Part shown: piece by piece, positions 10,290-26,698 of the stretch
How the letters are laid out: every line of letters begins with the position of its first letter
Position numbering within the stretch: the first letter of the stretch is position 1
DNA from: a virus
Taxonomy: Duplodnaviria; Caudoviricetes
Direction: 5' to 3' (one strand)
IMG/VR virus record: IMGVR_UViG_3300036987_000087
Location: 1 to 57,461 of that record
DNA: 57,461 nt
The notes under the pieces: model-generated
Seen by the model: only the letters and a program-made list of their open reading frames with translations
What the model was told of the DNA's origin: nothing
Database searches by the model: none
Made by a program: the position numbers and the translations under genes

Positions 10290-11267
10290 CTACGCAGCCA
10301 CCTTCTCGACGGTCTCCGTCACGCCGGGCACCGTCGCGCCGGCCTTCGCCTGAGCGCAGCAGACTTTCTCGACAGCCTCACGGATGGCCGGGTGATCCTT
10401 GCAGTGCGCCAGAGCGGCGGCGAAGTCGGTGACGACGTACTTGGTGACGGTGCGTAGGCCAGTCTTGCGCCCGCGCTGCCCTCCGGCTTGAACGCGAACC
10501 GGCTCGACGGGAGGTGGAGCCGGCAGCGGTTCGGGTTCCGGCGAGGACAGGGCCAGCGCGGGGTCGGAATCCATCAGCGCCTTGCGCTCATCTTCGCGGC
10601 GCTTGTTCTCCGCTGCGATGCGTTCTGCTTCTGCCCTGCGCTTGGCGTCGGCCTCGGCCTGAAGGCGCTTTTCTTCGTCGCGCATGTAGGCGGTTAGCGC
10701 ATCGCGAAGCTGGCTTGCGGCTGCGTCGGCGTCATCAATCATCGGCTTGTAGGAAGCGTCGACCTCGCGGCTAGCTTCGAGGTGAGGGCGCTTTTTTGTC
10801 TCACGCTCAGCGTCGGCGCGCTTGCGCAGTTCGAGCAACTTCTGCCGCATGTTTGCAGCGGCGTCCTTGCTCGTTGCGTCCTTTATTCCTCCCTTGCGCA
10901 GCCACTCGATGGCGCGCGCCGCGTAGTCGTGAATTTGCTCGGCCAGAGAAACGTCGCCGCTGTTATCTCCGATTGTCGCGGGGGCATCGCCTAGCCATGC
11001 GTCGCCATTGGCGAACGCATGCATCGCCGCTTCCTTGGTCACCGGCTTGTCGGCGACATAGGTCCACACCTCGATGGCGGGGCGATAGTTCTTAGCCGAT
11101 CCGACGAGCGCCACGAGCGCGCCGTCTTTCAGGTAGATGCATACGGGAAGGAACGGGCCGCCCTTGTGCTGGCGCACCCTGTAGTAGCCCGCATGCGGCT
11201 GGTCCGCGTAGATCGGCGGCATGTTGCCGGCGAGCGCTTCGTTCCAGTACGTCAGGTCGTTGCTCAT
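10290..11267 (-). CDS. Coiled-coil phage protein of the recombination module
   Basis: 325-aa ORF with long helical middle, upstream of the RecT-like gene. Confidence 0.7.
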   Translation of the reverse strand: MSNDLTYWNEALAGNMPPIYADQPHAGYYRVRQHKGGPFLPVCIYLKDGALVALVGSAKNYRPAIEVWTYVADKPVTKEAAMHAFANGDAWLGDAPATIGDNSGDVSLAEQIHDYAARAIEWLRKGGIKDATSKDAAANMRQKLLELRKRADAERETKKRPHLEASREVDASYKPMIDDADAAASQLRDALTAYMRDEEKRLQAEADAKRRAEAERIAAENKRREDERKALMDSDPALALSSPEPEPLPAPPPVEPVRVQAGGQRGRKTGLRTVTKYVVTDFAAALAHCKDHPAIREAVEKVCCAQAKAGATVPGVTETVEKVAA

Positions 11268-12864: not shown

Positions 12865-12920
12865 ATCTGGAAACTAATTCCAGATGGAATGCCTGTCAAA
12901 TGATTTTGTAATTATTTTCC
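12865..12920 (-). promoter_or_regulatory. PL promoter with CI operator(s)
   Basis: Minus strand TTGACA-N17-TAGTTT (12899..12871), overlapped by palindrome ATCTGGAAACTAATTCCAGAT; second half-site ttttccag nearby. Confidence 0.8.
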
Positions 12921-12964
12921 AGACGACCGACGCACAAAGGCAAACGGGGCTTTTTGGGCGCCCG

Positions 12965-13612
12965 TCAGATGTCGCGGATCAGCTTCGTGGCGCGACCGAC
13001 AACAAAACCGGGCCGGTCCTGGCCTACGTTCACTTCGGGGTGATCAGGGTTCGGTGGGAGGATGCAAAAGCCCTCGGTCTCTCCAAGGTCGGAGGGGCGA
13101 TAGCGCCCAAAAATTGCTCGATGAATGCTTTCAAGTACCGCAAGGACGTTCCGGCCAGCAATTGGCGGCTTGTCGGGCTCGATGATCACCACGTCGCCGG
13201 GGCGAAAATCGTCGCCTTCCCGGTGCTTCGTGGCGACCACGCCGCTGTCGCTATCCAGTAAGAGCCCAAAGGCACCGTCCCCGACGGGAGCGGTCGTTAC
13301 GACTGTCGTTTCCCCGTCCCAGAGCTCCCGGGGGTCCTGCCCCCGTTTAAGCTCCCCAAGTCTGTATAAATGGAGCAAAGGCAATTCCCCTAATTCGGCG
13401 ATAACTCCAGGTTGCACTCCGTGAAATAGCTCAATCTCCGATCTATCCAATGCGGCCAATGCTTTAGCCAAGTCATCTTTACGGGGCGACTGAACGTCGC
13501 CCCTTAACCATTTATATAGTGTATCGACATCCACGCCAGAGGCTTGCGCGAGCTGCGGCACCTTCCAGCGTTTCTCTGTCATCCAGCCCCTTAGGCGCTC
13601 AGACCAATGCAT
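12965..13612 (-). CDS. CI-like repressor (HTH plus degenerate S24-like domain)
   Basis: N-terminal XRE HTH (QLAQASGVDVDTLYKWLRG); C-terminal FRPGDVVIIEPD...PPNPDHP; divergent from cro. Confidence 0.88.
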   Translation of the reverse strand: MHWSERLRGWMTEKRWKVPQLAQASGVDVDTLYKWLRGDVQSPRKDDLAKALAALDRSEIELFHGVQPGVIAELGELPLLHLYRLGELKRGQDPRELWDGETTVVTTAPVGDGAFGLLLDSDSGVVATKHREGDDFRPGDVVIIEPDKPPIAGRNVLAVLESIHRAIFGRYRPSDLGETEGFCILPPNPDHPEVNVGQDRPGFVVGRATKLIRDI

Positions 13613-13639: not shown

Positions 13640-13690
13640 CATACCTGGAAAAATGATACTTGCAAACTGGAAATCGTTTCCATAAACTGC
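13640..13690 (+). promoter_or_regulatory. PR promoter with operators
   Basis: TTGCAA-N17-TAAACT (13660..13688) enclosing TGGAAATCGTTTCCA; upstream CTGGAAAA half-site matches the PL operator. Confidence 0.75.
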
Positions 13691-13695
13691 CTCGC

Positions 13696-14028
13696 ATGGC
13701 TAGGAGACTGCCCCTATCTGCTAATCCTGTTCACGCAATCCTGGTGAAGGCCGGACGTGCGGAGGACATTTCTTCCGCAAGCAAGGTCTCGGCGGCCGCC
13801 AAAAAGCCGGTGGAACCGAGCGCCGTTCATAAATGGCGCTGGAGCGGAATTCCAGAAGAACATTGGGCACTGGTAATTGATCTAGCGGAGACGCGTGGAT
13901 CTTCCGTCACCGTTCAAGAGATCTACGACGCCAACTCGGCGCTCCGAGCGCTTCTCGACAGCGATCATTCGACTTCTACGGAGGCGCACTCAGCGCCTGC
14001 CGCCGACCGCGGCCGTGTTGCCGCCTAG
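13696..14028 (+). CDS. Cro-like regulator (probably leaderless)
   Basis: VEPSAVHKWRWSGIPEEHW; ATG 7 nt after the -10 box. Confidence 0.75.
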   Translation: MARRLPLSANPVHAILVKAGRAEDISSASKVSAAAKKPVEPSAVHKWRWSGIPEEHWALVIDLAETRGSSVTVQEIYDANSALRALLDSDHSTSTEAHSAPAADRGRVAA

Positions 14029-14163: not shown

Positions 14164-14739
14164 ATGGGTGGCTGGCATCAGCGAATTTTCGGACCTTCCC
14201 GCAGGGCGCGGCGCCGCGCAGCCGCAGAATACTTCCACAACTATTTGCTTGCAGGCGTCGAGGGCGAGTACGTCCCGAACGCCGAAGTCGTCAAGGGCTA
14301 TGCTCAGGCGCGCGAGCAACACGGCTGGCCGGCGCTCGATGCAGGCACGCTGCTCCACGAGCTCCGCGTTCTCGGCTGCGAATCCACGCAGACCATCAAG
14401 GTTCCGTGGTCGAACGGTTCGCCACCGAAGCCTGCGCTTCCGGCTCCCGAACCTGTCGCTTCGCCAGTTGTCGAAGCCGAAGCGTCGAACCCTTCGATCC
14501 GATCAGTTCGCCAGCGCCCGGCATCTGGTTCGGCTTCGCGAGATGAAGCCCTAGCCGAGCTGTTGGACAGGTTGGATCGTGACGAAACGATCCCATCGCA
14601 GCAGGCGCTGGCCGAAGCATGGGGCCGCTCGGAAGGCACGGTGAGCGACTGGCTCTCTGCCTGGCGTAAGGCCGGGTTCATCCCGCGCCCGATCCGTGAA
14701 GGCAAGTGCAACGTGCTCCAACTTCGGAAGGCGGCCTAG
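14164..14739 (+). CDS. Soluble protein with C-terminal winged HTH and intragenic repeat array
   Basis: SRDEALAELL...PSQQALAEAWGRSEGTVSDWLSAWRKAGFIP; Pro/Ser-rich linker. Confidence 0.75.
   Translation: MGGWHQRIFGPSRRARRRAAAEYFHNYLLAGVEGEYVPNAEVVKGYAQAREQHGWPALDAGTLLHELRVLGCESTQTIKVPWSNGSPPKPALPAPEPVASPVVEAEASNPSIRSVRQRPASGSASRDEALAELLDRLDRDETIPSQQALAEAWGRSEGTVSDWLSAWRKAGFIPRPIREGKCNVLQLRKAA
14411..14538. repeat. Dense CGAAS/STTCG pentamer array
   Basis: About 12 copies counted by eye in about 130 bp, both orientations. Confidence 0.7.
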
Positions 14740-14741
14740 CC

Positions 14742-15020
14742 ATGCTCACACATCGTCAGCATGACGCCATGCTTGCCATCGAGGCGGCTATCGAACGCAC
14801 GGGCGGCGTTGCTCCGACCGTTGAGGAACTCGCCGCCAGCCTCAAACTCCGCAGCCGTACAGCCGCATGGAAGCTCATCGACGGGCTTGTATTGCGCGGG
14901 TTTGTTCGTCGGCTGCCGGGTGAGGAGCGCGGTCTGGAAGTCGTTCGTCCGGTGAGCAGGTTCAAGTTCCTGCGTTTTGATGCCGAGACAGGAAAAGCCG
15001 TTCTAGCGCAGCCGCCATAA
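14742..15020 (+). CDS. LexA-type DNA-binding-domain-only protein
   Basis: MLTHRQ...GVAPTVEELAASLKLRSRTAAWKLIDGLVLRGFVRR. Confidence 0.8.
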   Translation: MLTHRQHDAMLAIEAAIERTGGVAPTVEELAASLKLRSRTAAWKLIDGLVLRGFVRRLPGEERGLEVVRPVSRFKFLRFDAETGKAVLAQPP

Positions 15021-15024
15021 AGGA

Positions 15025-15054
15025 AAAGGCTCGGCCTGTCGGGGCCGAGCCTTT
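15025..15054. terminator. Hairpin terminator (tR-like)
   Basis: AAAGGCTCGGCC-N6-GGCCGAGCCTTT. Confidence 0.65.
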
Positions 15055-15113
15055 GATTTGGATTTGGCTCGGGCGGGAGCAAACCGCTGGAGCCGGGATA
15101 ACCTCTGCAAAAG

Positions 15114-15713
15114 GTGAGCAACATGTACACACATTCACGGCCCGTCGTCAAGTCTGTTGCCCGTAAGTTCTCGCGCTGGATTCGGTTCTACGAGGACTCC
15201 CTCCACGATCCCAAAATCGTCACGCTGAGCGACCGCCAGTTTCGCGACTGGTGCCGGCTCATGCTGATCGCTTCGCGCCACCCACTCGGACACTTGCCGG
15301 CGCTACGCGATATCGCATCCGACATTCGGTGCACGGTCGCCGACGCAAGCGCTGCCCTTGAAGACCTGTTCGAGATCGGCCTGATAGACATCGTCCAGCA
15401 GGTTCCTGAGACGGTCTACGCGCCTCACAACTGGACCAAGCGGCAGTTCGTTTCTGACTGCGAGGGATCGGCAAAGAGGGTGCGCAAGCACCGCAGTCAG
15501 AAGGGGTCGAAGCAGGGCTGTAACGGCGATGTAACGTTACAGAAACGGTCGGGTGACGACGATGTGACGCCAACGAAACGACCGAGTAACGAAATTTCCT
15601 CTGAGTCTGTATCTGCTTCTGTAGAGCTAGAGGCTAGGTACTTACCCATCCATGATAGGGATGGTGACAGTAGTAAGCTAGGTGATGGTGTTGTTGCACG
15701 AGGTGACGCATGA
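15114..15713 (+). CDS. Replication initiator / replisome organizer
   Basis: WIRFYEDSLHDPKIVTL...HNWTKRQ...AKRVRKHR; internal iterons; upstream of the helicase. Confidence 0.75.
   Translation: MSNMYTHSRPVVKSVARKFSRWIRFYEDSLHDPKIVTLSDRQFRDWCRLMLIASRHPLGHLPALRDIASDIRCTVADASAALEDLFEIGLIDIVQQVPETVYAPHNWTKRQFVSDCEGSAKRVRKHRSQKGSKQGCNGDVTLQKRSGDDDVTPTKRPSNEISSESVSASVELEARYLPIHDRDGDSSKLGDGVVARGDA
15518..15640. repeat. Putative phage replication origin (iterons inside the initiator gene)
   Basis: Repeated GTAACG/GAAACG/GTGACG units followed by an AT-richer stretch. Confidence 0.6.
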
Positions 15714-17218
15714 ACGCGCACCTCCACCCGCACCAGAGCGCCGCCATCGACGGCGTGTGGCAGTCCTTCGCCGCCGGTCATCGTCGGTCAATGCTGGAGC
15801 TTCCGACCGGGGCCGGCAAGACGGTCATTGCCCAGGCCATCACGTCCCGCGCTCTGGCCAAGGGCCGCCGTGTCGCCTTCTGCGTTCCGTTCCTCGGGCT
15901 CATCGACCAGACCTTCGAGCGGTTCGTGCAGTTCGGCATCGATCCGGCCGACATCGGCGTGATCCAGGCGGACCATCCGTGGCGGCGTCCCGGCGCCAAG
16001 GTGCAGATTTGTTCGGGCCACACGCTCGCCAATCGTGGGTTCCCGGCTGCCGATCTGGTCATCATCGACGAGGCCCATCGGCATCTGGAAATCTATCGCA
16101 CATGGATGGATGCCTGCCCGCAAGTGTATTTCCTGGGGCTTAGCGCAACCCCGTGGACCAAGGGCCTCGGCAAGCACTACGACCACCTGATCCGCCCGAC
16201 CTCGATTGAGGAATTGATCGAGATGGGTTTGCTTTCTCCGTTCCGCGTGTTCGCGCCATCCGTTCCCGACCTCGCCGGCATCAAGGTCGTCAACGGCGAC
16301 TACCACGAGGGGCAACTCGAAGAACGCATGTCCGACGCGGTGCTCGTCGCTGACATCGTCGAGACGTGGCTCAAGCGCGCCAAGGGCCTGCCGACGATCT
16401 GCTTCGCCGCCGGCCGCGCGCACGCCCGACAGGTGGCAGAGAAGTTTGCACAGGCTGGGGTGCCGACGGCGTACATCGACGCTTTCACGCCCCGCGAGGA
16501 GCGCGCTGAAATCGGCGAACAACTCGCGTCGGGTTCAATCGAGGTCGTGGTCAACATCGCGACACTGACGACCGGCATTGATTGGGATGTCCGGTGTCTG
16601 ATCCTCGCGCGGCCGACGCGATCGGCGGCGTTGTTCGTGCAGATGATTGGTCGCGGGTTGCGCACGGCTCCGGGCAAAGATGCTTGCCTGATCCTCGACC
16701 ACTCAGACACGCACCAGCGCCTTGGCATGGTGACGGACATCGTTCGCGAAACGCTCGACGATGGGTCCAAGGCGGACAGCGAAAAGCGCGAACGCGAGGC
16801 GGCCAAGACGCCGCTGCCGAAGTGCTGCCCGTCATGCACCGCGCTGATGCCTATCAACTCGCGCAAGTGCATTTCCTGCGGTCACGAGATGCCAGCCATC
16901 GTCAAGGTCGAGATGCGCGACGGTGAATTGACCGAGTTCGCCAGCAAGAAGCCGAAGCCAGAGCCGGCACTGAAGGCCATCCAAAAGATGGGCAAGCCCA
17001 GCGTGCTCGGACAGTTGAAGGGGCTGGCCATTCGGAAGGGCCGCGATCCCGTGAAGTGGGTTCGCGCCAAGTATCGCGCAATTTTCGATACGTGGCCGCA
17101 AGCCATCCACACGCAGCCGCCAGAGGAGCCGACGCCAGAACTCGAAAGCTACGTGCGCCATCTCGACATCGCATGGGCGAAGTCTCGAACCGCTCGGTCG
17201 GAGACCGTCAATGCGTGA
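15710..17218 (+). CDS. SF2 DEAH helicase with C-terminal Zn ribbon
   Basis: LPTGAGKT, IIDEAH, LSATP, QMIGRGLR, CPSC...CISCG. Confidence 0.92.
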   Translation: MNAHLHPHQSAAIDGVWQSFAAGHRRSMLELPTGAGKTVIAQAITSRALAKGRRVAFCVPFLGLIDQTFERFVQFGIDPADIGVIQADHPWRRPGAKVQICSGHTLANRGFPAADLVIIDEAHRHLEIYRTWMDACPQVYFLGLSATPWTKGLGKHYDHLIRPTSIEELIEMGLLSPFRVFAPSVPDLAGIKVVNGDYHEGQLEERMSDAVLVADIVETWLKRAKGLPTICFAAGRAHARQVAEKFAQAGVPTAYIDAFTPREERAEIGEQLASGSIEVVVNIATLTTGIDWDVRCLILARPTRSAALFVQMIGRGLRTAPGKDACLILDHSDTHQRLGMVTDIVRETLDDGSKADSEKREREAAKTPLPKCCPSCTALMPINSRKCISCGHEMPAIVKVEMRDGELTEFASKKPKPEPALKAIQKMGKPSVLGQLKGLAIRKGRDPVKWVRAKYRAIFDTWPQAIHTQPPEEPTPELESYVRHLDIAWAKSRTARSETVNA

Positions 17219-18158
17219 GCGCGAGACGACCAAGGAACGCTCTGTAGGCCGATGGAAGTCGATACTTTCAGCGTTCGGCCTCACGCAGCAGCAGCTTTCC
17301 GGCAAGCACGGCCCATGCCCTGTATGCGGCGGAAGGGATCGATTCAGGTTCGACGACAAGGGCGGCAACGGTACCTGGTTCTGCAATCAGTGCGGGGCGG
17401 GTGACGGCATCGGTCTCGTGATGCGCCTCAAGCGGGTGGCGTTCAAGGAAGCGTGCCAGTCCATCGAGTCGTACATCCCTGGGGCGGCCGTCGCTACGCG
17501 GTCGGCTACGTCCAAGGTCGATTGGGAGGCGCGCGGGCTCGATCTGTGGGCACAGTGCCGGCCGTTGGACGGATCGGATACGGCGTCGCTGTATCTGCGT
17601 CGGCGCGGCATTCTTCCGACGCGCCAGCCTATGCTGCGGCACGCGCCGCGATACGGCTACGTGCACGAGGACCGGCACAAGACGACGCATCCGGCGATGG
17701 TGGCCCGCTACGTTTCACCGGACGCCACGCACAGCACTTTCCACATTACATATCTCGACGCATCGGGACGGAAGGCTGACGTGCCGAGCGTGAAGAAGCT
17801 CTGGCCTGGACGTGTGCCGGATGGCGGCGCCGTTCGCCTTGCCCCGTCTGCAGACACGATGGGGATAGCCGAAGGCATCGAGACGGCGATGAGCGCGGCG
17901 CAGCTTTTCTCAGTCCCGGTCTGGGCTGCGCTCAACTCCGGCAACCTCATGAAATGGCAACCGCCCGAGACGGCCCGCAACATCATCGTATTTGGGGATC
18001 GCGACGAGAGTTTCGACGGTCAGTGCAAGGCGTATGCCCTCGCACATCGGCTCAAGTTGTCCGGGCTGTCTGTCGAGGTGCGCCTTCCAGATTTCGACGG
18101 GGACTGGAACGACTACCTGACGAGTTTCGATGCACCACGCGCTGAAGCCGCAGAATGA
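17211..18158 (+). CDS. P4-type Zn-finger/TOPRIM primase
   Basis: HGPCPVCGGRDRFRFDD...CNQCGAGDG; IAEGIETA, FGDRD, DWND. Confidence 0.9.
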   Translation: MRERETTKERSVGRWKSILSAFGLTQQQLSGKHGPCPVCGGRDRFRFDDKGGNGTWFCNQCGAGDGIGLVMRLKRVAFKEACQSIESYIPGAAVATRSATSKVDWEARGLDLWAQCRPLDGSDTASLYLRRRGILPTRQPMLRHAPRYGYVHEDRHKTTHPAMVARYVSPDATHSTFHITYLDASGRKADVPSVKKLWPGRVPDGGAVRLAPSADTMGIAEGIETAMSAAQLFSVPVWAALNSGNLMKWQPPETARNIIVFGDRDESFDGQCKAYALAHRLKLSGLSVEVRLPDFDGDWNDYLTSFDAPRAEAAE

Positions 18159-18173
18159 CGGAGGGGTATCACC

Positions 18174-18758
18174 ATGCAGCAGCCAGACACGAAGCCAAAC
18201 TTCACACCGCGCGTTTTGATCAGCCATTGCGTGAGAGCTGCGTCCATCGTCTGCGGCATTCGCCGGGATCTGTTGCTGAGCGATACGAGGCAGTCGCCAA
18301 CGGTCGCGCTCGCCCGACAGTTGGGCATGGCGGTGGCTGCCGATCTCACCGGCCAGAGTTTGCCGGCGATCGGCCGTGGCTTCGGCGGTCGCGACCACAC
18401 GACGGTGATCCACGCCATCCGCAAGGTCGAGGAGACGGCGATAGCGGATCGGCAGTTTGCTCACGCGGCGCGCGAGGTCGCCATTAAGGCGCGCCAGCTC
18501 GCCGGCGTCTGGCCGTCGCCGCAGCAGCATGGAATGCCCGTCGTCTCCGAAGAGGTGCGCAAGCCGACGCTGGCAAGCGTGCCGTCGATGGACAAGCTGG
18601 AAACCGTCCTGACCGACGTGCAGCGCCGGGAGATGGTTCGGCTTCGGGCGAAGGGCAAGGGCTGGTCTGTCGGCGGACTGGCGCGGCGCTACTCAATATC
18701 GATTGATCAGGTCTATCGCGAGTTGGGCGAGACGCCACCGAACAAGATTGCAGCCTAA
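18174..18758 (+). CDS. DnaA C-terminal (domain IV) HTH protein with a second HTH
   Basis: ARQLGMAVA...[24 protein letters not shown]; C-terminal [14 protein letters not shown]. Confidence 0.85.
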
Positions 18759-18771
18759 GGGGAACACGACG

Positions 18772-19782
18772 ATGGGGGCGAAGAAGAAGCGCAAGCCGGA
18801 TGTCGGCGCGCGACGCGAGCGGCAAAGGGTCGTCTCGTTGCACCACAAGACACGTGAGAACCTCGAAGCGCTGAATGTCGATGTGGAGGGGATGTTCAGC
18901 GAGAACCCCGTCGTGCTTCGCAGGCTGCACAAGGCATCACTCGATTTGCGGGAGATGCACGAGCGGATGACGCGGAGCAATGCCGTCTCTCCGACAGCGC
19001 CGACACCCGAGCGCTTGCGTCACTCAACAGGGGGCGTGAGGGCGTTCGAGGTCAACCCGGCACTACCGAAAGCGCATCAAGTGGAATGGCCCTTGGAGGT
19101 TATCCGCGACCGCCTGTCGTCGTTTCAGTACGAGGCCGCCGAACGGCTGCGGGATGCCTACCTCGAAATGCAACCCCGCTCGGCTGTTGCGGACACGACC
19201 GGGGCCGGTGGCGCGTCAGACCCATCGAGCCGCCTCGCAATAACGGAGACGATGGAGTTCGCCGGCAGGGAGTTCCATTGGCTGATGGGGCGCCTTGAGA
19301 CCCCGTTCCGCCGCATCGTTGAGAACTTCATTCTGGAGCGCGTACCGGAGGGCAAAGAGCGATGCATGACCATTGTCGAGTTCGGCAACAGGGCCTCGAA
19401 GATGGGCGGCGACAATCAGGGGCGGGCCGCCGGCGTCATGGCGATCATGCTGGCGTGTGACCGGCTGAACTACCTCTACCACGCCTACGACAGTTGGAAG
19501 CGGGAGCAGTGTCACCGGACAGATCGAATGATGAAGTCGGACATCGGCCAACGGGCAGGCCGGCAGGGGTGGATTTGCTCGCTGTGGGACTGGTGTCACC
19601 GCAACGGCAAGCTGCCCCAGGTCCAGGCCGACGTGGATCTCATTCGAGTGCGTCACGACGCGGAGGCCGTCCGTCTCCGCAATAGCCCGCCGATGGAGTT
19701 GGAGCGGTACCACCGACGCCGGGATCGCCTCGTCTCCATCGCGTTCCGAGACGAGGATGAGCGGGTGAGGATCGTGGCATGA
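18772..19782 (+). CDS. Hypothetical protein, candidate late-gene regulator (DUF6456-like)
   Basis: PTPERLRH...QYEAAERLR; position after replication genes; function inferred only. Confidence 0.5.
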   Translation: MGAKKKRKPDVGARRERQRVVSLHHKTRENLEALNVDVEGMFSENPVVLRRLHKASLDLREMHERMTRSNAVSPTAPTPERLRHSTGGVRAFEVNPALPKAHQVEWPLEVIRDRLSSFQYEAAERLRDAYLEMQPRSAVADTTGAGGASDPSSRLAITETMEFAGREFHWLMGRLETPFRRIVENFILERVPEGKERCMTIVEFGNRASKMGGDNQGRAAGVMAIMLACDRLNYLYHAYDSWKREQCHRTDRMMKSDIGQRAGRQGWICSLWDWCHRNGKLPQVQADVDLIRVRHDAEAVRLRNSPPMELERYHRRRDRLVSIAFRDEDERVRIVA

Positions 19783-20090
19783 CCATCCCGATCGTTGTCA
19801 CCCGGCACGCGGTGCGCAGATACCTGGAGCGGGTGATGCACGTCGACCTGTCCGCCTATGACCGATTGGGCATGAGCGATTCACTCGCCGTCGATTTGGC
19901 CTGCGAGAGACACAGCATCGATGCTGCGTACATCGAGGCGCAGATTACTTTGGACGTTGAGCCGAGAGTTCCTGAGACCGTGCGGCTGAGAGGAACAGCG
20001 CGAACGGTGCGCGGGGAGATATGCAGATACGTGATCGAGGGCCGATACGTAGTTACCACGTTGCCAGAGCGGGGAGATGCAGCGGCATGA
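19779..20090 (+). CDS. Hypothetical protein
   Basis: VTRHAVRRYLERV...VVTTL motif; coupled. Confidence 0.7.
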   Translation: MTIPIVVTRHAVRRYLERVMHVDLSAYDRLGMSDSLAVDLACERHSIDAAYIEAQITLDVEPRVPETVRLRGTARTVRGEICRYVIEGRYVVTTLPERGDAAA

Positions 20091-20329
20091 GACACGATCA
20101 ACGTGACTGGCGCGCAGTCGACCGCGCAAAGCGTGCTGACGACTGGCGGTATGCGGGCGAGTTTCTGGTGCTTGCCCCACTGGGTTTCATCGGCGGCCTC
20201 GTCGCCACGATGTTCGTCGGATTTTTCGTGTCCTGCGTCTTCATCGCTGCGGTGCTGATCCGGTGCGCACCGCTCATCATTGCGGTGTTCGTGGCTATCA
20301 TGCTCGCCAGATGCGTGGGGGTGGTGTGA
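20087..20329 (+). CDS. Small membrane protein
   Basis: Two hydrophobic stretches; coupled. Confidence 0.6.
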   Translation: MRHDQRDWRAVDRAKRADDWRYAGEFLVLAPLGFIGGLVATMFVGFFVSCVFIAAVLIRCAPLIIAVFVAIMLARCVGVV

Positions 20330-20502
20330 TGGCTGAGATTGACTGGCAGCGTCGCGCCGAGGCTTACCGCGAGTTGCTCGTTCAGGCCCGCGCAAAGCTC
20401 GTGACCTGCGCCGCAGATACACCGCTCACTGTGACGTACCCAACCCGTAAGCGCGTGCTCACAGACATGATCAACAAGATCACAATTGCAATCGAAGGAT
20501 AG
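20329..20502 (+). CDS. Hypothetical protein
   Basis: TGATG coupling. Confidence 0.55.
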   Translation: MAEIDWQRRAEAYRELLVQARAKLVTCAADTPLTVTYPTRKRVLTDMINKITIAIEG

Positions 20503-20512
20503 GGGAAGGCAG

Positions 20513-20812
20513 ATGGAAACGCGCACCGTACACGACCCGTTCGTAGGCGTTGACGTGCAGGTCAGCAACCGGCTTGTTGACCGGCTACGCGGCAAGTACG
20601 CGAGCGGGCCGCACCTGCCTAACGGCTTGCCCGAATTCGGATGGCGGCAGTTTCAGGCGACGCCGATCAACCTGGAGGCAGCTACGCGCATCGAGGCACT
20701 TGAGGCGGCGCTGCACAAGATCAACCGCTTGATCGACCGCCCGTCGTGCTTCAACGGTGAAATTCAGAAAGTGCTCGATAGCGTGATCGATACATCGGAC
20801 ATCAAGTTCTGA
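20513..20812 (+). CDS. Hypothetical protein
   Basis: SD present; LVDRLR...EAATRIEALE motif. Confidence 0.65.
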   Translation: METRTVHDPFVGVDVQVSNRLVDRLRGKYASGPHLPNGLPEFGWRQFQATPINLEAATRIEALEAALHKINRLIDRPSCFNGEIQKVLDSVIDTSDIKF

Positions 20813-20858
20813 AAAACGGAGACAACCATGTCAAAGCTCTATCAGTACGCAGTGCCGT

Positions 20859-21356
20859 GTGATGGATGACAGACTGCCAAACGCGGCGGCTGCCCAATGC
20901 CCTAAGTGCGGGGGCAAGCTGAATCGGTCGGTCCGTGGGCGCATCTTGAAGTCATGTGATGGATGCCGCAGGGCCGCCAAGAACCCTGGTCCGTCCGCCA
21001 AGATCGAGTTGCGGCATCGGGGAGCTTACAACGAACTTATCGCGGTCGCGTGGCTGCTGACCGAGGGGTACGAGGTTTTCCGAAACGTCAGTTCTCACGG
21101 CTGCGCAGATCTCGTGGTCTGGCGCGGGGAAGATGTGCGCTTCGTAGACGTGAAGGCTTCTACGAGAACGCAGAACGGGGAGTGGCAAGTCCCGAAGAGA
21201 AAGAGCGAGGCGCGGCGGCGAGGTGTGTGGCTACTGCTTGTCTCGTGGAACGGCGAGTTTCGTTGGGTGCATCCGCAGGAAGAATCAACACGGGACCGGC
21301 GCTTCGGGCCCAGAGCAGACAGGAGGATGGAGCAATGCTCGGAACCAGCAAACTAG
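20859..21356 (+). CDS. Zn-ribbon plus PD-(D/E)XK endonuclease-like protein
   Basis: CPKC...CDGC; RGAYNEL...GYEVF...ADLVV...VDVKAS. Confidence 0.7.
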   Translation: MMDDRLPNAAAAQCPKCGGKLNRSVRGRILKSCDGCRRAAKNPGPSAKIELRHRGAYNELIAVAWLLTEGYEVFRNVSSHGCADLVVWRGEDVRFVDVKASTRTQNGEWQVPKRKSEARRRGVWLLLVSWNGEFRWVHPQEESTRDRRFGPRADRRMEQCSEPAN

Positions 21357-21592
21357 ACAGCCTTCGCCGCGCCGTGGCGGACGCCGTTCTAGCGGGTGGA
21401 GTAGTTGTTGTGTGGTTCGCTGCGGCGAGTGTCTATCTCGGCCTCACGGACGATCCTGGGGCGATTGGCAAGCTATCCATCGTAACGGGTCTGGTCGTTA
21501 CGATCTTCGCAGCGTTGAGGCTGGTGAGGGCATCAGCCTATGACGACGGGCTCGATGCAAGGCGCAACGAGTTCGACGACGTGCCGTTTTAG
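21335..21592 (+). CDS. Small two-TM membrane protein
   Basis: Two hydrophobic helices, SD present. Confidence 0.55.
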   Translation: MLGTSKLDSLRRAVADAVLAGGVVVVWFAAASVYLGLTDDPGAIGKLSIVTGLVVTIFAALRLVRASAYDDGLDARRNEFDDVPF

Positions 21593-21598
21593 GCAAGC

Positions 21599-21635
21599 AA
21601 AAGCCCCGGAGGGGTGATCTCCGGGGCGCTGTTTT
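21599..21635. terminator. Bidirectional intrinsic terminator
   Basis: AAAA GCCCCGGAG-N7-CTCCGGGGC...TTTT between convergent genes. Confidence 0.75.
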
Positions 21636-21705
21636 AACTGATAACATGTTGTCAGTTAGCGCGTGATCTGCGGCGGTAGTGACAACAGGTGAGCGCTACG
21701 GGCCT

Positions 21706-21954
21706 TTATTGGGCGTCCAAAAACATGCCGCCGCACATCGGCCGCGGCTGGTCTAATCCTACGTGCTCGTCGGCGCTGGTAACGAGCATTCCGACTTGAA
21801 CATCGCCGTATTCGCGCTTCACCCACTCAGCAATAGCGTTGGCCTTCACGCGAGCCTCGCGCCTTCCGTCCTCGTCGGGCGCTGCGTTGTGCGCGTCAAC
21901 GTGCCGGTGGTACTCCTGAAATATGCTCTCTGGCGGCAGTCGGTAAAACGGCAT
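21706..21954 (-). CDS. Small hypothetical protein (array gene 5)
   Basis: Preceded by GAGGGCTGAGCC-ATG. Confidence 0.7.
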   Translation of the reverse strand: MPFYRLPPESIFQEYHRHVDAHNAAPDEDGRREARVKANAIAEWVKREYGDVQVGMLVTSADEHVGLDQPRPMCGGMFLDAQ

Positions 21955-21957
21955 GGC

Positions 21958-22101
21958 TCAGCCCTCGCGTTCGCAGTCCTGTATCAACTCAGCGGCTTGG
22001 CGCCGGCCGATGCCGAGCGCCACGATCTTGCGGAAGGTTTCAAGGCGCGGCACGGCATAGAACACCATGTCGTATAGGTACCAGTGAGCTTTCACGTACA
22101 T
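21958..22101 (-). CDS. 47-aa hypothetical protein (array gene 4; below the ORF track cutoff)
   Basis: MYVKAHWYLYDMVF...CEREG*, preceded by TAAGGCCCGAGCC-ATG. Confidence 0.6.
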   Translation of the reverse strand: MYVKAHWYLYDMVFYAVPRLETFRKIVALGIGRRQAAELIQDCEREG

Positions 22102-22111
22102 GGCTCGGGCC

Positions 22112-22411
22112 TTAATTTGACAGGTTAGCGATGGCCTTCTCAGCGGCCGTCATGATGTCGTCGGCCTCAGCGATAGCAGCGAAGTCATCTTCCGCAACAC
22201 CGTTGGAATTTACCCGTGTGATGCCTACGGCGTAGAGCGGTTCGCCAGGGCGGGCGCGACCCTTCGACAGATACCAGTGATGATCCGGTTCGAGCGCTTG
22301 CAGCTTCTCGACAGCCTGCGCTACGGCCTCAGCCTCTGTTGCCATTTCAATCGCCTCTCTGTGGGCCGCGCCGTCGTAACGCGGGTCGCCTTCTTGGTAT
22401 GGGTACGTCAT
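22112..22411 (-). CDS. Small hypothetical protein (array gene 3)
   Basis: Preceded by TGAACAAAAGGCCCGAC-ATG. Confidence 0.7.
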   Translation of the reverse strand: MTYPYQEGDPRYDGAAHREAIEMATEAEAVAQAVEKLQALEPDHHWYLSKGRARPGEPLYAVGITRVNSNGVAEDDFAAIAEADDIMTAAEKAIANLSN

Positions 22412-22433
22412 GTCGGGCCTTTTGTTCAGGGTT

Positions 22434-22658
22434 TCAGTTGAAGCCGAGAATGTAGCGCTCGACCATGTCGCGGTTGCCTTGCTGCGCCTGCATTGCGGCG
22501 TGGATGCCGAGCGCAGAAAGCGCCGGTCCTAGTTTTGTCTCAGGGTGTTTTTCCATGTCCGACATCATGGATGTGACGCCCTCTAGTAGTTCGCCGCGCT
22601 TGACGTGTTCCATCGCGCGGTCCTTGCACCATTGAAGGTATTCGGCTCGTGTTTCCAT
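22434..22658 (-). CDS. Small hypothetical protein (array gene 2)
   Basis: TRAEYLQWCKDRAMEHV...MMSDMEKHPET...ILGFN; preceded by TGAACAAAAGGCCACTTCG-ATG. Confidence 0.75.
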   Translation of the reverse strand: METRAEYLQWCKDRAMEHVKRGELLEGVTSMMSDMEKHPETKLGPALSALGIHAAMQAQQGNRDMVERYILGFN

Positions 22659-22674
22659 CGAAGTGGCCTTTTGT

Positions 22675-23007
22675 TCAGAGTACGGTGGCGCGCTTGCGCC
22701 CCCAGTTTTTAGCTCGCTCCATCGCCTCCGAAATTCGGAATGGCGACCACCCCTTACGCAGACCCTTCACAATAACCGCCTCTGCACGTTTGAAGTCGCG
22801 CCAGCCATGCTGGATCAGGTCGAAGCGCTCGCGGCCCGTCGCAGTGTCTACGTCCTGCCTATCGCGCACGCCGGTTTCCGGCTGGTTCCCATGGCCGCCC
22901 CACGGCAGCGTTGGGTGCCAAATGACATGCGTAAGAACCCAGCGGCCGTCGACCTCTGCATGCCCAATCGGCTCGGTGTATGGGTGGTCGTTCTCGACTG
23001 CGTTCAC
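22675..23007 (-). CDS. Hypothetical protein (array gene 1, GTG start)
   Basis: Preceded by AAAGGCCCGAGCC-GTG, downstream of a strong promoter. Confidence 0.65.
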   Translation of the reverse strand: MNAVENDHPYTEPIGHAEVDGRWVLTHVIWHPTLPWGGHGNQPETGVRDRQDVDTATGRERFDLIQHGWRDFKRAEAVIVKGLRKGWSPFRISEAMERAKNWGRKRATVL

Positions 23008-23069
23008 GGCTCGGGCCTTTGCAATACTGGACAGCGACCAGTTCGCCATCCCACAATTCAATGCCTGGA

Positions 23070-23112
23070 ATCTACTGTGTCCATTGACTTTCGTCAAGCC
23101 TAACGTTACTTT
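23070..23112. promoter_or_regulatory. Overlapping divergent sigma70 promoters sharing a palindrome
   Basis: Minus strand TTGACG-N17-TAGATT; plus strand TTGACT-N17-TACTTT; the two -35 boxes form TTGACTTTCGTCAA. Confidence 0.7.
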
Positions 23113-23118
23113 TGCAAA

Positions 23119-24054
23119 ATGATACCAAACGGCCCAAATATCCGCGGGATAGCGCGGAACGTCAGCAAGCGTTACCCGGTCAGTGGTCAAGTCGCGCTCC
23201 TAGAGCAGAACGGCATCACCGTGATCTACGCAGAGGACAGAAAGCACGCCGAACTAGATATGCGGGGCGCATGGCTGCGCTCGCTGCGCAATGGCGACGT
23301 TGCTGTCGTGACGTGGCTCGGCTTGTTGGCTGACCCCGTGGGCAACGTCGCGCTGCGGCGACGGGACCTGAAGGAAATCGTTGACGAGATCGAAGAGAAG
23401 GGCGCTAGCATTTGGGAGCTGGCAACGGATCGGCGCAGCACCGACAAGAAGCAGCGCGACGCGATGATTGCTGATGCGTGGGAGGGGCTGGCCAAGGCGC
23501 GCTTCGACAAGGGCACCGCGAGCCCTGGTCGCCCGCCTCAGTTCAAATCCGAAGAGGACCGCGCGATCATCTGGGACGAGTGGCACTCGAAACAGCATAA
23601 AACCAATGCTGAAGCCGCTCGCGCCGCCTCCGCTCGCCTGCAAAAAATTATCCGCCCCAACCTGATGTGGCGCATCGTGTTGGAGATGCGCGCGGCGAAT
23701 GGGTTGCCTGCAAAGCTGAAGGGCGGCAGCGGCCGTCGCGCTGGCCGGCGCGAGCCATCGCTTGGCGGCGCCTGGGATAAGCATAAGTCGCAGGTCTATT
23801 TCCTGCAGCAGGGCGAAACCGACCGCGTTAAGATTGGCTTCTCGTGCCGGATCAATGGGCGCATCTCGAATTTGCGCAGCAGCAATCCTGACAAGCTCAC
23901 GCTGCTGGCTACGGTGAGTGGAGCGCGCGACGCTGAGGCTCGACTGCACAAGCGCTTCTCGCGCTACCGCATAACGGGTGAGTGGTATCGACTAGAAGGC
24001 AAGCTTGCGGAGTACGTCGCGAAGCTGCCGAAGCCTAAGAAACCTATGTCCTGA
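23119..24054 (+). CDS. Degenerate serine resolvase-like domain fused to a T5orf172-type GIY-YIG domain
   Basis: RGIARNVS...Q...LRNGDVAVVTWL...GRPP; C-terminal VYFLQ...VKIGFS...RISNL...EARLHKRF...GEWY. Confidence 0.75.
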   Translation: MIPNGPNIRGIARNVSKRYPVSGQVALLEQNGITVIYAEDRKHAELDMRGAWLRSLRNGDVAVVTWLGLLADPVGNVALRRRDLKEIVDEIEEKGASIWELATDRRSTDKKQRDAMIADAWEGLAKARFDKGTASPGRPPQFKSEEDRAIIWDEWHSKQHKTNAEAARAASARLQKIIRPNLMWRIVLEMRAANGLPAKLKGGSGRRAGRREPSLGGAWDKHKSQVYFLQQGETDRVKIGFSCRINGRISNLRSSNPDKLTLLATVSGARDAEARLHKRFSRYRITGEWYRLEGKLAEYVAKLPKPKKPMS

Positions 24055-24170
24055 ATAGGAGAAGCAAGTGCGCGAGATACGTGTGCGGCTCTGGATGGTC
24101 TATTGGAGTGCCGTGATTTGGTGGGATCGGCACGTTCGCGGCTGGAAACACATGGAAGAGAAAGACTGAC

Positions 24171-24401
24171 ATGGCCAAAGGTTTTGAGGCGTCACCGCTA
24201 GTCAAGACGCTGCACCACTGGCAAGCGCTCGACGCAAAGGGCGACGTGCTGCCGTGCCCATTCTGCGGGTCGCCCGCTTACACCATGCCGTGCGACCCGG
24301 AACCGGCTGCGCGAGTTCAATGCGGCGGCAGTTGCGAAGCGACGATGTACTCCCCCTATGGGCGAGAGCACGCGGTCGCTGCCTGGAATAGACGTGTCTA
24401 G
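24171..24401 (+). CDS. Lar-family restriction alleviation protein
   Basis: LPCPFCGS...CGGSC...AVAAWNRR. Confidence 0.8.
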   Translation: MAKGFEASPLVKTLHHWQALDAKGDVLPCPFCGSPAYTMPCDPEPAARVQCGGSCEATMYSPYGREHAVAAWNRRV

Positions 24402-24403
24402 AA

Positions 24404-24598
24404 ATGGAGCGACAGATGGTCATATGGCGACGTTGGCGCACAATTCGCGGTGCAGGATTTTTCGGTCAACCCGTCGGGTATCTGCCGGACGCCCACTTTC
24501 CATTCCGATGGATGGCACGCACGCATGCGTGGGCGTGGAAGACGTTTAATTTGTTCCCCGGAAGGCTTGTATCTCGCGTTGAGCGAGCGTCCGATTAG
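24404..24598 (+). CDS. Hypothetical protein
   Basis: ORF directly after the Lar-like gene. Confidence 0.45.
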   Translation: MERQMVIWRRWRTIRGAGFFGQPVGYLPDAHFPFRWMARTHAWAWKTFNLFPGRLVSRVERASD

Positions 24599-24609
24599 CC
24601 GCCGACATG

Positions 24610-24640
24610 AAAACCCCGCCAGCGGTGAAGCCAGCGGGGT
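24610..24640 (-). terminator. Intrinsic terminator between convergent units
   Basis: AAAACCCCGC...GCGGGGT hairpin. Confidence 0.6.
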
Positions 24641-24662
24641 CAATTGAGTTCGACTGTTCGGC

Positions 24663-25769
24663 TTATGCCTTCGCAAGTGCCTTGTTCTTCCAGCTACGAG
24701 TGCGAGCAGGGATGAGGCCAGCTTCTTCCCACTCGCGAAGCCACTCCGAGGCCGTCGACTTACCGATGCCGTACCGTTCGGCGATCTCGTTCTGGCTTGC
24801 GAACTGACCGCCAAAAGCGAGGTGCGTCACGAGATCAGCGGCAGCTTCGTCCTTGGTGTAGCCGCCGCGTCCCTTGCGGCTCAGAGTTCGTCCCGAACCG
24901 TTCGGCTTCTTTGGTTCGGTTCGTGGCGAACGGAGCCCTCCGTTGTTCGGCTTGTCGTTCCGTGGCGAAATGATCGCTTCGGGATCACTCACGAACCGAT
25001 CCCGGAAGTCCGTCAGTTCGTCATTTGAGACTGAACCGATTTGGGTTAGCTCGTTCTGGCGAACTGAAGTCTGAACCGACTTCGGTAGACGCTTCGGAGA
25101 GAACGCGAACCCGAAGCTGACGATCGTCCCGAACTCTAGAAAAAGTGTCGTCAAAAATGGGCTCAGCAAGATCGCCAGCGCCCGAACCTTGTCCTTGTCG
25201 TAACCGAGAGCCGCCGCAACGGTGGCGAACTGCTCAGCTTCGGCGCTCACCGGCTTGGCCGGTTCAAGAACCTGCAGGCGGGCTTCTAGACCCTTCAGCG
25301 AATTCTCGTAGAAGGCTGCCGTTGCCTTCTTGGCCTTGCACTTGTTGCCGTCTCCGTCGGCGCACTCGGCATCGCGTGCCGCACGCTTTTCGTTGACTGC
25401 AATGCGCTCGGCCTGGATCTGCGCCTCAAGGTCGAGACGCTGGGCCACGAGCTGGTCATGCTCGACGCCCGATACCAGTGTCTTCTCTGCCTGCCGACCG
25501 ACCGAAGAATATACAACGAGGCCGGTGCCGGCGAGGAAGAGTGCCGCAAACCCAATGACCGATACCCAATGGCGGGCGCGGCGTGCGAGGTCTGCGAGGT
25601 GGCCAACCATCATCGTTCCAGAGACGGTGACGAGTGTAAGCCAGTGCTTGAGCGTGAACTGTGCTCCGTGCATCAGGACGTCCTCGAAGAGGATGGCCAA
25701 GGTGCCGGTTGCGAGGATCACGCCCGCCGCGATTGCAAGGCCACGGCCGGCCGTGTTAGAAGTCGTCAT
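24663..25769 (-). CDS. Membrane protein: 3 TM, coiled coil with Cys pair, TM, linker, C-terminal winged HTH
   Basis: Hydrophobic N-terminal helices, RDAECADGDGNKC, fourth TM, TKDEAAADL...SQNEIAERYGIGKSTASEWLREWEEAGLIP; AAGGA SD. Confidence 0.8.
   Translation of the reverse strand: MTTSNTAGRGLAIAAGVILATGTLAILFEDVLMHGAQFTLKHWLTLVTVSGTMMVGHLADLARRARHWVSVIGFAALFLAGTGLVVYSSVGRQAEKTLVSGVEHDQLVAQRLDLEAQIQAERIAVNEKRAARDAECADGDGNKCKAKKATAAFYENSLKGLEARLQVLEPAKPVSAEAEQFATVAAALGYDKDKVRALAILLSPFLTTLFLEFGTIVSFGFAFSPKRLPKSVQTSVRQNELTQIGSVSNDELTDFRDRFVSDPEAIISPRNDKPNNGGLRSPRTEPKKPNGSGRTLSRKGRGGYTKDEAAADLVTHLAFGGQFASQNEIAERYGIGKSTASEWLREWEEAGLIPARTRSWKNKALAKA
24845..25134. repeat. Dense CGAAS/STTCG pentamer array
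   Basis: About 17 pentamers (about 25 GAAS/STTC tetramers) counted by eye in about 290 bp. Confidence 0.75.
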
Positions 25770-25889: not shown

Positions 25890-26042
25890 TCAGTTGGTCC
25901 GCTTCCGCTCCTTGAGCGCTGCATCGACCCAGCCACGGACGTGATGCTGTCCCCATCGGCTGACCTCTGCAGGCACCTCGACACCGTGCTTTTGGGCTCG
26001 GGCGAGCTGCGTAACGAGACCCTTCTCAACTGCGACTTCCAT
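25890..26042 (-). CDS. 50-aa hypothetical protein (below the ORF track cutoff)
   Basis: GGAG SD, MEVAVEKGLV...KERKRTN*. Confidence 0.6.
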   Translation of the reverse strand: MEVAVEKGLVTQLARAQKHGVEVPAEVSRWGQHHVRGWVDAALKERKRTN

Positions 26043-26063
26043 GGTGGTCACTCCGTTTGTAGT

Positions 26064-26130: not shown

Positions 26131-26340
26131 TTAATCCTCAATTTCGTCGTCCTCTTCTTCGTCCAGCGTCTCCACAAGTGCCGCGATGGCCTGCTCTGCT
26201 ACGGACTTGGCGGTATCGAAGTCGCCTAGGCGCTGCAGGTCGGCAATGACACGGAATGCAGAGATGAGGTCATTGCGTTGGTCGTTGTCGAGGTCGGCGG
26301 CGAGGGTCTTGATCTTTTCGGTGAGCATTGCTTTCTCCAT
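26131..26340 (-). CDS. Small acidic hypothetical protein (start may be 26328)
   Basis: ORF whose TAA abuts the ribozyme; first gene after the promoter. Confidence 0.7.
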   Translation of the reverse strand: MEKAMLTEKIKTLAADLDNDQRNDLISAFRVIADLQRLGDFDTAKSVAEQAIAALVETLDEEEDDEIED

Positions 26341-26359: not shown

Positions 26360-26420
26360 GATACATTAAATGTAATACATTAATTACCGCAATTCAACAT
26401 CAGACACATCAGTCAAGCCC
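26360..26420 (-). promoter_or_regulatory. Promoter with operator-like repeats
   Basis: Minus strand TTGAAT-N17-TACATT (26397..26369); ATACATTAA twice and ACATCAG twice. Confidence 0.6.
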
Positions 26421-26479
26421 CTTTTGCCATCACATTTTCGTGAATTGTGTGATTTTAGTAATACGGCTACGCATTGTGT

Positions 26480-26698
26480 ATGGCCAAGCCATCAAAACGC
26501 GGCCCTGGGCGGCCCCAAATCGCTGAGGAAGATCGGCTGATAGTGAAGCCGATGCGCCTGTCACAATCAGAAATCGACGAGATCGAAGCTCTGAGGCGGG
26601 AGGTCGGGGATAGTTCCCTCGGCGCCCCCGCATGGTCTACTGTGGCCAGGGGCTTGATCCGTGAGGCGCTGGACCGGCGGAAAGGGAAGCGCAAATGA
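26480..26698 (+). CDS. Ribbon-helix-helix regulator
   Basis: RGPGRP...PMRLSQSEIDEIEALR...STVARGLIREAL. Confidence 0.75.
   Translation: MAKPSKRGPGRPQIAEEDRLIVKPMRLSQSEIDEIEALRREVGDSSLGAPAWSTVARGLIREALDRRKGKRK

Follow-up and report, generated by a model that had tools for sequence, protein, structure and literature searches.

Some phage and plasmid replication proteins bind to sites that lie inside the genes that code for them. This is described, in the parts of the sources that we draw on, for lambda O and ori-lambda (PMC7466680), for gp38 of SPP1, where oriL is inside gene 38 and a second copy of the site, oriR, is about 13 kb away (PMC6316719), and for RepAM of pMEA300 (PMC2440964). Anchoring of phage DNA at the membrane is known from the phi29 protein p16.7, which the relevant sections of PMC4974454 describe as a membrane protein that binds DNA and anchors the replicating genome at the membrane. 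We describe here two paralogous genes, called A and B, in the IMG/VR virus record IMGVR_UViG_3300036987_000087; the window is this whole record of 57,461 bases, which looks like an integrating temperate phage. Both genes code for a C-terminal winged helix-turn-helix (wHTH) domain, both contain, just before the DNA for that domain, an array of the palindrome CGAAC-N-GTTCG and its half-sites, and the product of B is predicted to be anchored in the membrane. As in lambda O, SPP1 gp38, and RepAM, to the extent that the cited passages describe them, the repeated sites of A and B are in their own coding sequences, where the encoded protein segment can accommodate them.

A and B are not related to lambda O, gp38, or RepAM by sequence or by any Pfam or PHROG match, and their 11-13 bp palindromes and half-sites at irregular spacing are unlike 19-bp iterons beside an AT-rich tract. 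Moreover, the DNA-binding domain (DBD) of A and B is C-terminal and B is an integral membrane protein that is coded outside the replication module, unlike lambda O, gp38, and RepAM. The p16.7 protein has an N-terminal anchor, a coiled coil, and a C-terminal DBD, and its binding to single-stranded DNA and to terminal protein is not site-specific. B is like p16.7 in that its AlphaFold 2 (AF2) model has a membrane anchor and a putative cytoplasmic DBD in one phage protein but it differs in having four transmembrane (TM) helices, a hairpin in the periplasm, a wHTH, and sites within its own gene that are apparently sequence-specific. The p16.7 family gave no match in the PHROG scan, which was the sole comparison made. 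In the literature (full texts, supplements excluded) we found no description of a membrane-anchored wHTH protein with sites in its own gene. The pair had been put forward in an earlier reading of the bare sequence, referred to here as the original prediction, as a candidate undescribed system, and this holds for the membrane-anchored form but not for the placing of sites inside the binder's own gene, for which lambda O, SPP1 gp38, and RepAM are precedents. The novelty lies in B, the more widespread of the two partners, being an integral membrane protein, and there is a real chance that this is a new kind of system.

Counting of CGAAC, GTTCG, CGAAG, and CTTCG gave 12 copies in 14411-14538, inside gene A, and 17 copies in 24845-25134, inside gene B, which are exactly the numbers that had been claimed as approximate. 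There are 454 such words in the whole window, that is, a mean of 1.0 per 128 nucleotides (nt) and 2.3 per 290 nt, and the earlier estimate that about one per array is expected was therefore right for A and too low for B. The two arrays are the densest clusters of these words in the window, and elsewhere no stretch exceeds 6 words in 128 nt or 8 in 290 nt. The k-mer enrichment scan that had been suggested as a check was carried out without bias over all 512 strand-collapsed 5-mers of the window and it placed both arrays among the top eight, the B array as 3rd and the A array as 8th, while the first two ranks went to GC-rich, low-complexity CGCCG/GGCGG clusters at 52.6-53.3 kb. Amino-acid or codon bias had been named as the explanation that would overturn the original prediction. 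This was tested with codon-aware nulls of 5000 simulations each, either by recoding with the codon usage of the window or by synonymous shuffling within the segment. The A array has 12 words against a mean of 1.8 (maximum 9) upon recoding and 6.3 (maximum 11) upon synonymous shuffling, and the B array has 17 words against a mean of 6.5 (maximum 13) and 7.9 (P = 0.0002), respectively. Codon or amino-acid bias as the cause of the arrays is thus ruled out by codon-aware nulls, in the window and in those homologues described below that have a significant array.

The pentamer that had been taken for the repeat unit is not the unit. When all copies were aligned, the unit was an 11-13 bp palindrome, CGAAC-N-GTTCG, together with many single half-sites, and a 13-bp extended form, SCGAACSGTTCGS, is frequent. 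The main arrangement is CGAAC followed by GTTCG at an offset of 6 (16 cases in seven arrays of class 1, as defined below). The perfect palindrome occurs only twice in the window, at 14411 in gene A and at 24894 in gene B, and palindromes with at most one mismatch occur 12 times against 3.2 expected, a number that none of 100 shuffles reached. The copies occupy three reading frames and both strands and are translated to PNGS and (R)ERF or, in another class, to RTVR, PDGP, and AGLSG. Because inverted copies are found in three frames and on both strands, neither a peptide repeat nor replication slippage can yield this pattern. In the DNA alignment of five class-1 linkers 35 of 60 columns are invariant in the motif and 43 of 113 elsewhere (P = 0.016), and the invariant islands are the motif copies. 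It is the DNA signal that dictates the linker peptide and not the reverse, and selection is at the DNA level.

The AF2 model of A has a confident three-helix N-terminal domain (residues 13-69), a disordered stretch (75-122; predicted local distance difference test (pLDDT) < 50), and the wHTH (126-184). In the model of B, TM helices at about 6-33, 40-64, and 68-90 are followed by one at 192-222; between them is a long helical hairpin (91-187; helices 68-136 and 142-167) with its turn at the invariant C136 and C144, and after them come a disordered linker of about 75 residues (228-301; pLDDT < 50) and the wHTH (306-365). The four TM helices support the claim that one of the paralogues is anchored in the membrane. 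BLASTP aligned the C-terminal 98 amino acids of A and B with 34% identity (E 2e-11) and left the rest without alignment, which agrees with the claim of paralogous C-termini and unrelated N-termini. The basic residues of B are R9, RRARH after TM2, and KR after TM4, and by the positive-inside rule the N-terminus, the TM2-TM3 loop, and the wHTH would be cytoplasmic and the Cys-tipped hairpin periplasmic. Pfam matches were HTH_36/HTH_28, just at the cut-off, for B and weak HTH_23/HTH_28, under the cut-off, for A. PHROG gave for B a weak match to phrog_270 in the wHTH part only (E 0.0018), and A had no Pfam, NCBIfam, or PHROG match to a known initiator family. Both arrays coincide precisely with the DNA of the disordered linkers just before the wHTH, where they had been predicted to be, and the linker DNA is the place of weakest protein constraint. 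A short helix in the B linker (249-261, VSDAEL..LR.RF) is conserved across several wHTH classes, and its being kept in an otherwise disordered linker suggests a function at the protein level, perhaps as a docking motif, apart from the DNA motif.

A profile search with B found 1213 cluster representatives at E <= 0.001, 807 at <= 1e-10, and 348 at <= 1e-30, and at least 147 homologues are of near-full length, with ones labelled Hyphomicrobium among the homologues, whereas A has only 6 homologues. Members of the B family are not named beyond 'hypothetical' or 'HTH' and their Atlas neighbours are mostly viral. PADLOC and NCBIfam gave no match past the HTH, Foldseek against the PDB gave generic wHTH matches alone (E > 0.1), and the BFVD matches are uncharacterised phage proteins (best E 9.7e-4). 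Searched by tblastn, the INPHARED phages gave no hit to A, B, or P0052 and the PLSDB plasmids none to B. Two scans of genome contigs found nothing, and added scans of viral contigs with P0009, P0014, and P0052 yielded no new wHTH class. In nearly all loci examined B is antisense between the early and packaging modules, and at other loci too it is preceded by small ORFs (open reading frames) on the same strand that are not homologous to those of the window. DNA was sampled at 18 IMG/VR loci and 9 metagenome loci, several of which are duplicates, as are most of the metagenome ones. The codon-aware test was applied to the post-TM4 tail of 19 B genes, comparing 5-mers with recoded controls, and 11 of the 19 had a 5-mer that was commoner than any in the controls (P <= 0.016), namely, those of W (the window), L001, L003, L004, L005, L008, L013, L015, L018, L028, and L031.

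Covariation of motif and recognition helix in homologues had been proposed as a check, and the motif does change with the class of the wHTH, although the independent loci are few. Class 1 (W, L001, L003, L004, and L005) has CGAAC-N-GTTCG and the recognition helix KST[AM]SEW, while class 2 (L007 and L008) has CGGAC-N-GTCCG and the recognition helix KQRVSDW. L028 has 25 copies of TTCGG, partly in a 9-bp tandem, and L018 has GGTTGCC, the recognition helices of these two being not classified; L013, L015, and L031 have TTGCC(G) and a different C-terminal HTH. In the protein sequences of the family, PNGS is present in 9 of 17 class-1 linkers and in none of 6 class-2 linkers, while PD[GS]P is present in none of the 17 and in 4 of the 6 (Fisher P = 0.0017). 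We did not retain a reading in which a single residue accounts for the specificity change (Thr to Arg with A to G); PD[GS]P linkers were also found in 2 of 7 KQT[IV]SDW proteins. Head-to-tail 9-bp repeats make up part of the array both in L028, at 2557-2590 (TTCGGACNN), and in L018, at 10884-10910 (GGTTGCCNN), and they code for 3-residue peptide repeats (GPN/GPK and ATx). In L005 five CGAAC/GTTCG half-sites (0.8 expected) are at 4143-4342 in the 5' part of a gene for a 217-residue HTH protein, just upstream of the large terminase gene; it has no Pfam hit and no perfect palindrome and is possibly a small terminase gene.

The pair of genes recurs in L001 (record G004, 54 kb, 99% complete) and L003, which contain both B and an A homologue. 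In the linkers of these A homologues CGAAC/GTTCG words number 12 (3.9 expected) and 14 (3.5 expected), respectively, and there are two perfect palindromes each, in peptide sequences that differ from that of the window's A. All seven perfect palindromes of G004 are within A (2) or B (5), and those inside B number 3 of 5 in G001, 3 of 4 in G002, and 2 of 2 in G003. The A profile matched only the C-terminus of B (E 1e-12 to 1e-17) in G001, G002, G003, and G005, which are 59-78% complete. The isolated perfect palindromes outside B, which are of the phage's own class, are in small early-region genes (G001:C1:6933 and 7230, which are L046 1934 and 2231, and G002:C1:47757); with a chance expectation far under one per record, they may be single regulatory sites.

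A LexA-DBD-only gene begins 2 nt past the stop codon of A and is translationally coupled to it. Its product consists of the DBD and a conserved tail, RPVSRF.F.RFDAET. A LexA-DBD-like gene is also next to the A homologues in L001, where the order is A homologue, LexA-DBD-like gene, and DnaB helicase gene, and in L003, but it is missing from G001 and G003, which bear arrays. The LexA-DBD-only protein is possibly a third component of the system, its membership being uncertain, and its targets could be host SOS boxes or the arrays. CGAAC/GTTCG is the half-site of Gram-positive SOS boxes and GTTC that of alphaproteobacterial ones. Neither GTTC-N7-GTTC nor CGAAC-N4-GTTCG boxes were found in the arrays of W, L001, and L005; the spacing present is CGAAC-N1-GTTCG, and SOS boxes were rejected as an account of the arrays.

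The explanation that we tentatively favour, giving it somewhat less than an even chance, is that the arrays are the cognate sites of the paralogous wHTH domains and that a membrane tether serves the organisation or control of replication. The claim that each gene codes for a DBD together with its own array of sites stands in so far as there is selection at the DNA level, perfect sites are confined to the two genes in the window and in G004, and motifs are class-specific, while the binding itself is what we infer. We take the wHTH domains of A and B, rather than the LexA-like protein, as the probable binders because there are no SOS-type boxes, the LexA-like gene is missing in G001 and G003, and the motif tracks the wHTH of B. 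In the mechanism that we propose, the sites would have been written into the DNA of the unconstrained linker beside each wHTH. B would reside in the inner membrane with its cytoplasmic C-terminal wHTH bound to CGAAC-N-GTTCG sites, the palindrome probably being recognised by a dimer, and would hold array-bearing phage DNA, that is, its own gene and the A array, at the inner membrane. The wHTH would be made last and the gene translated into the membrane, which would favour capture in cis of the encoding molecule; the wHTH, on a flexible tether of about 75 residues and next to its own sites, could then capture its own template. A would be the soluble counterpart, expressed from the early operon, where it heads the replication genes, and would occupy the same sites, either to compete with B or in an origin-binding or organising function. 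Most likely the system would serve to place or control phage DNA replication at the membrane, and having the sites in the binder's gene would keep specificity linked to the binder despite phage mosaicism. It is conceivable, though rather doubtful, that the B family, with specificities diversified over more than a thousand protein clusters, is a new class of phage system, 'self-addressed' membrane tethers that recognise DNA of their own allele, capture the template in cis during transertion, and found a membrane-attached compartment for replication or maintenance or, in a lysogen, capture kin genomes.

Several findings weigh against the proposal that the wHTH domains bind the arrays for a membrane tether. 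The mean pLDDT is 68.9 for A and 65.5 for B, a modest confidence, and for a wHTH dimer the distance of 6 bp between half-site centres is unusual. The LexA-DBD-like protein coded beside A could itself bind GTTC-type sites. Seven of the 19 B loci (L006, L009, L011, L012, L014, L016, and L030) have no significant array, and L007 passes for its own k-mer only (15 against 5.2; family-wise P = 0.114). Independent loci are few, L001/L002/L025, L003/L026, and L004/L027 being near-duplicates, and since the classes share ancestry their 'covariation' may in part mean that linker and wHTH were inherited together as a single cassette. G001 and G002 have isolated perfect sites outside B, two of five and one of four, respectively. 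There is no AT-rich unwinding element by the A array and 15520-15700 is a better-looking candidate for the origin. Finally, proviruses with B only exist and A is thus dispensable; B and the array within it form the self-contained core, to which A is an optional soluble addition, a paralogue.

Segregation, one of the roles put forward in the original prediction, is unlikely to be the main one, since the phage codes for an integrase and the surroundings of the two genes showed no partition NTPase; no ParA, ParM, or TubZ-like match was found among 20 neighbouring proteins scanned. B may be compared with Streptomyces TraB, also a membrane-associated protein with a wHTH, which recognises the short clt repeats at the end of the TraB gene or close to it; TraB, however, is an FtsK-like ATPase translocase, whereas the Pfam scan found no NTPase domain in B. 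In the CGP3 prophage, as described in the sections of PMC4446434 that concern it, the adaptor AlpA binds alpS, an array of 24 repeats close to the gene for AlpA, and excised phage DNA is thereby brought to the membrane region for efficient replication. AlpA works via the actin-like filament AlpC, whereas a motor gene was not found in the vicinity of A or B, and alpS is upstream of its operon, whereas the arrays of A and B are intragenic. The same applies to centromere adaptors in general (ParR-parC, TubR-tubC, and AlpA-alpS), in that short-repeat arrays and a wHTH are present here but the arrays are intragenic and not upstream. Small terminases may also be compared, and in P1 the pac site is within pacA. 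For SPP1, passages of PMC6316719 place the pac sites of the small terminase gp1 inside gene 1, and B resembles gp1, as it appears there, in having repeated, in B putative, recognition sites that overlap its own gene near the packaging module. B differs from gp1 in being a membrane protein and in its opposite transcription, and the window has a separate small subunit of the Terminase_2 type.

An unlikely alternative is capture of kin DNA, that is, superinfection exclusion, in which B made by a prophage would trap at the membrane any incoming DNA with the same array, meaning phages that share the B or A allele, and the early A of the incomer would shield the sites. This would suit a gene that is a separate antisense unit with a terminator-like hairpin, in a moron-like position between modules, that codes for a membrane protein with a periplasmic domain in its AF2 model, and whose family has diversified in specificity; moreover, a site within the binder's own gene amounts to self-recognition. 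However, loss of the array would allow escape and yet the arrays are conserved, which suggests that they benefit their carrier. Against exclusion there is also the lack of a PADLOC match past the HTH, and in B-only phages the array is in B alone.

It is quite unlikely that the arrays are purely an origin with iterons, A being the initiator at an origin in the A array, the B array being a second origin, like oriR of SPP1, or a set of copy-control iterons of the kind that incA is in P1, and the anchor of B being secondary. A does head the replication genes, sitting in the window with a DnaD-like gene, helicase, and primase, and in L001 only A and the LexA-like gene are candidates upstream of DnaB. 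Sites inside the initiator gene are the rule in lambda, SPP1, and RepAM as the passages cited at the outset describe them, and 12.5-20 kb has no other prominent repeat family except at 15520-15700. On the other hand, the GC content of the A array is 0.63 and the GC profile has no AT-rich unwinding element beside it, the nearest strong dip in the replication region being 15561-15680 (0.47); in the B array (0.58) there is a modest dip to 0.52 at 25041-25160. The window also codes for a separate DnaD-like 'replication initiation' protein (phrog_3926), and the AT-rich, GTAACG-repeat 3' end of its gene is more origin-like. B is far commoner than A and is located outside replication modules, not beside helicase or loader genes, and A, as noted, matches no known initiator.

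That B is a membrane-bound sensor regulator is improbable. Its hairpin would sense the envelope, and either the intragenic sites would act as an autoregulatory roadblock or proteolysis of the linker would free the wHTH to act like A. In its favour are the predicted layout of B, which combines TM segments, a domain in the periplasm that has two invariant Cys residues, and a DBD in the cytoplasm, its long disordered linker, and the existence of a soluble paralogue, but the sites cluster in coding regions and not in promoters, and arrays of 10-25 sites are excessive as a roadblock. Compared with regulators of the ToxR/CadC type, which have an N-terminal OmpR-type wHTH, a single TM helix, and a periplasmic sensor, B has the reversed domain order and four TM helices, and it has no similarity to their OmpR domains, there being no Trans_reg_C match in Pfam. 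Very improbable is that the binder is another protein (the adjacent LexA-DBD-only protein, host LexA, or a host factor) or that the arrays are a functionless by-product of peptide repeats or slippage, for although the half-sites are of SOS-box types, a gene with a LexA DBD comes after A in W, L001, and L003, and the 9-bp tandem repeats in the L018 and L028 arrays are typical of slippage, the arrays lack SOS-type boxes, G001 and G003 bear arrays without the LexA-like gene, the motif class follows the wHTH of B rather than a shared host factor, and the inverted copies in three frames and the rejected codon-aware nulls are against a by-product.

If the wHTH domains bind the arrays, A and B would represent a simple, widely distributed means of joining a phage genome physically to the inner membrane with allele-specific recognition, and the few proteins that bind within their own genes would gain a membrane-anchored member. 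The family would then provide natural orthogonal pairs of DBD and site of the types CGAAC-N-GTTCG, CGGAC-N-GTCCG, GGTTGCC, and TTGCC, and membrane organisation of phage replication, maintenance, and exclusion would become testable in Gram-negative temperate phages. The linkers are also a clear case of a disordered peptide (PNGS, ERF, and PDGP) that is dictated by a signal at the DNA level.

Table 1. Positions in the window of genes A and B, their arrays, and neighbouring features
Feature	Position	Strand	Evidence or remarks
Gene A, 191 aa	14164..14739	+	ORF, translation, AF2 model, 6 homologues
A array	14411..14538		12 CGAAS/STTCG words; perfect palindrome CGAACGGTTCG at 14411-14421; 1-mismatch copies at 14486 and 14500
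wHTH-coding DNA of A (residues 126-184)	14539..14715	+	AF2 secondary structure; BLASTP to B
LexA-DBD-only gene, 92 aa	14742..15020	+	Pfam LexA_DNA_bind E 3e-9; TIGR00498 partial match; synteny
Terminator-like hairpin	15025-15054		3' of LexA-DBD-only gene
Gene B, 368 aa	24663..25769	-	ORF, translation, alignment, AF2 model
B array	24845..25134		17 CGAAS/STTCG words, 12 being GTTCG/CGAAC; perfect palindrome CGAACCGTTCG at 24894-24904
wHTH-coding DNA of B (residues 306-365)	24675..24854	-	AF2; one 1-mismatch palindrome at 24770
Terminator-like hairpin 3' of B stop	24610..24639	-	Found by eye; not listed by automated scan
Small ORFs upstream of B	26131-26340, 25890-26051	-	First is 69 aa with acidic tail LDEEEDDEIED
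Sigma-70-like promoter match	26452..26480	-	Consensus match only; upstream of the two small ORFs and B
Tyrosine integrase	490-1752	-
CI-like repressor	12965-13612	-
Early operon, rightward	start 13660		Gene A is its second gene
Small terminase, Terminase_2	28731-29192		Gene distinct from B
Portal gene	31358-32905

Gene A is followed, in order, by the LexA-DBD-only gene, a hairpin, and the DnaD-like gene and then by genes for an SF2 (superfamily 2) helicase, a Toprim primase, and a DnaA-domain-IV protein; this last one (Bac_DnaA_C, E 6e-18) is at 18174-18755, after the primase gene. The segment 15520-15700 is the 3' end of the DnaD-like gene, with a GC content of 0.49 (0.47 in 15561-15680) and GTAACG/TGTAAC repeats (CTGTA and GTAAC four times each per 200 nt), and, being just upstream of the helicase gene, it is a plausible alternative origin of replication. 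Gene B comes after the early region and before the packaging module and is transcribed opposite to both. The hairpin after B has a 10-pair stem that includes two G-T pairs, a 6-nt loop, and TTTT after it. The two small ORFs upstream of B may be co-transcribed with it, and the sigma-70-like match upstream of them falls in the window's most AT-rich 120 nt (26361-26480, GC 0.35), a stretch that separates the B unit from the rightward late genes. The same 120 nt carry ACATT/AATGT four times, forming palindromes of the TACATTAAATGTA type that look like an operator set of another regulator. Palindromes of the type TGGAAA...TTTCCA (e.g., GGAAATCGTTTCC) are at 13640-13700, between the CI-like repressor gene and the early operon, and again at 12866-12923, within or adjoining the end of the repressor gene, and these are likely immunity operators with no relation to the CGAAC motif. 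The strongest 5-mer clusters of the record are in 52600-53400 (GC 0.67), where CGCCG/CGGCG occurs 16 times and CCGCC/GGCGG 14 times per 200 nt.

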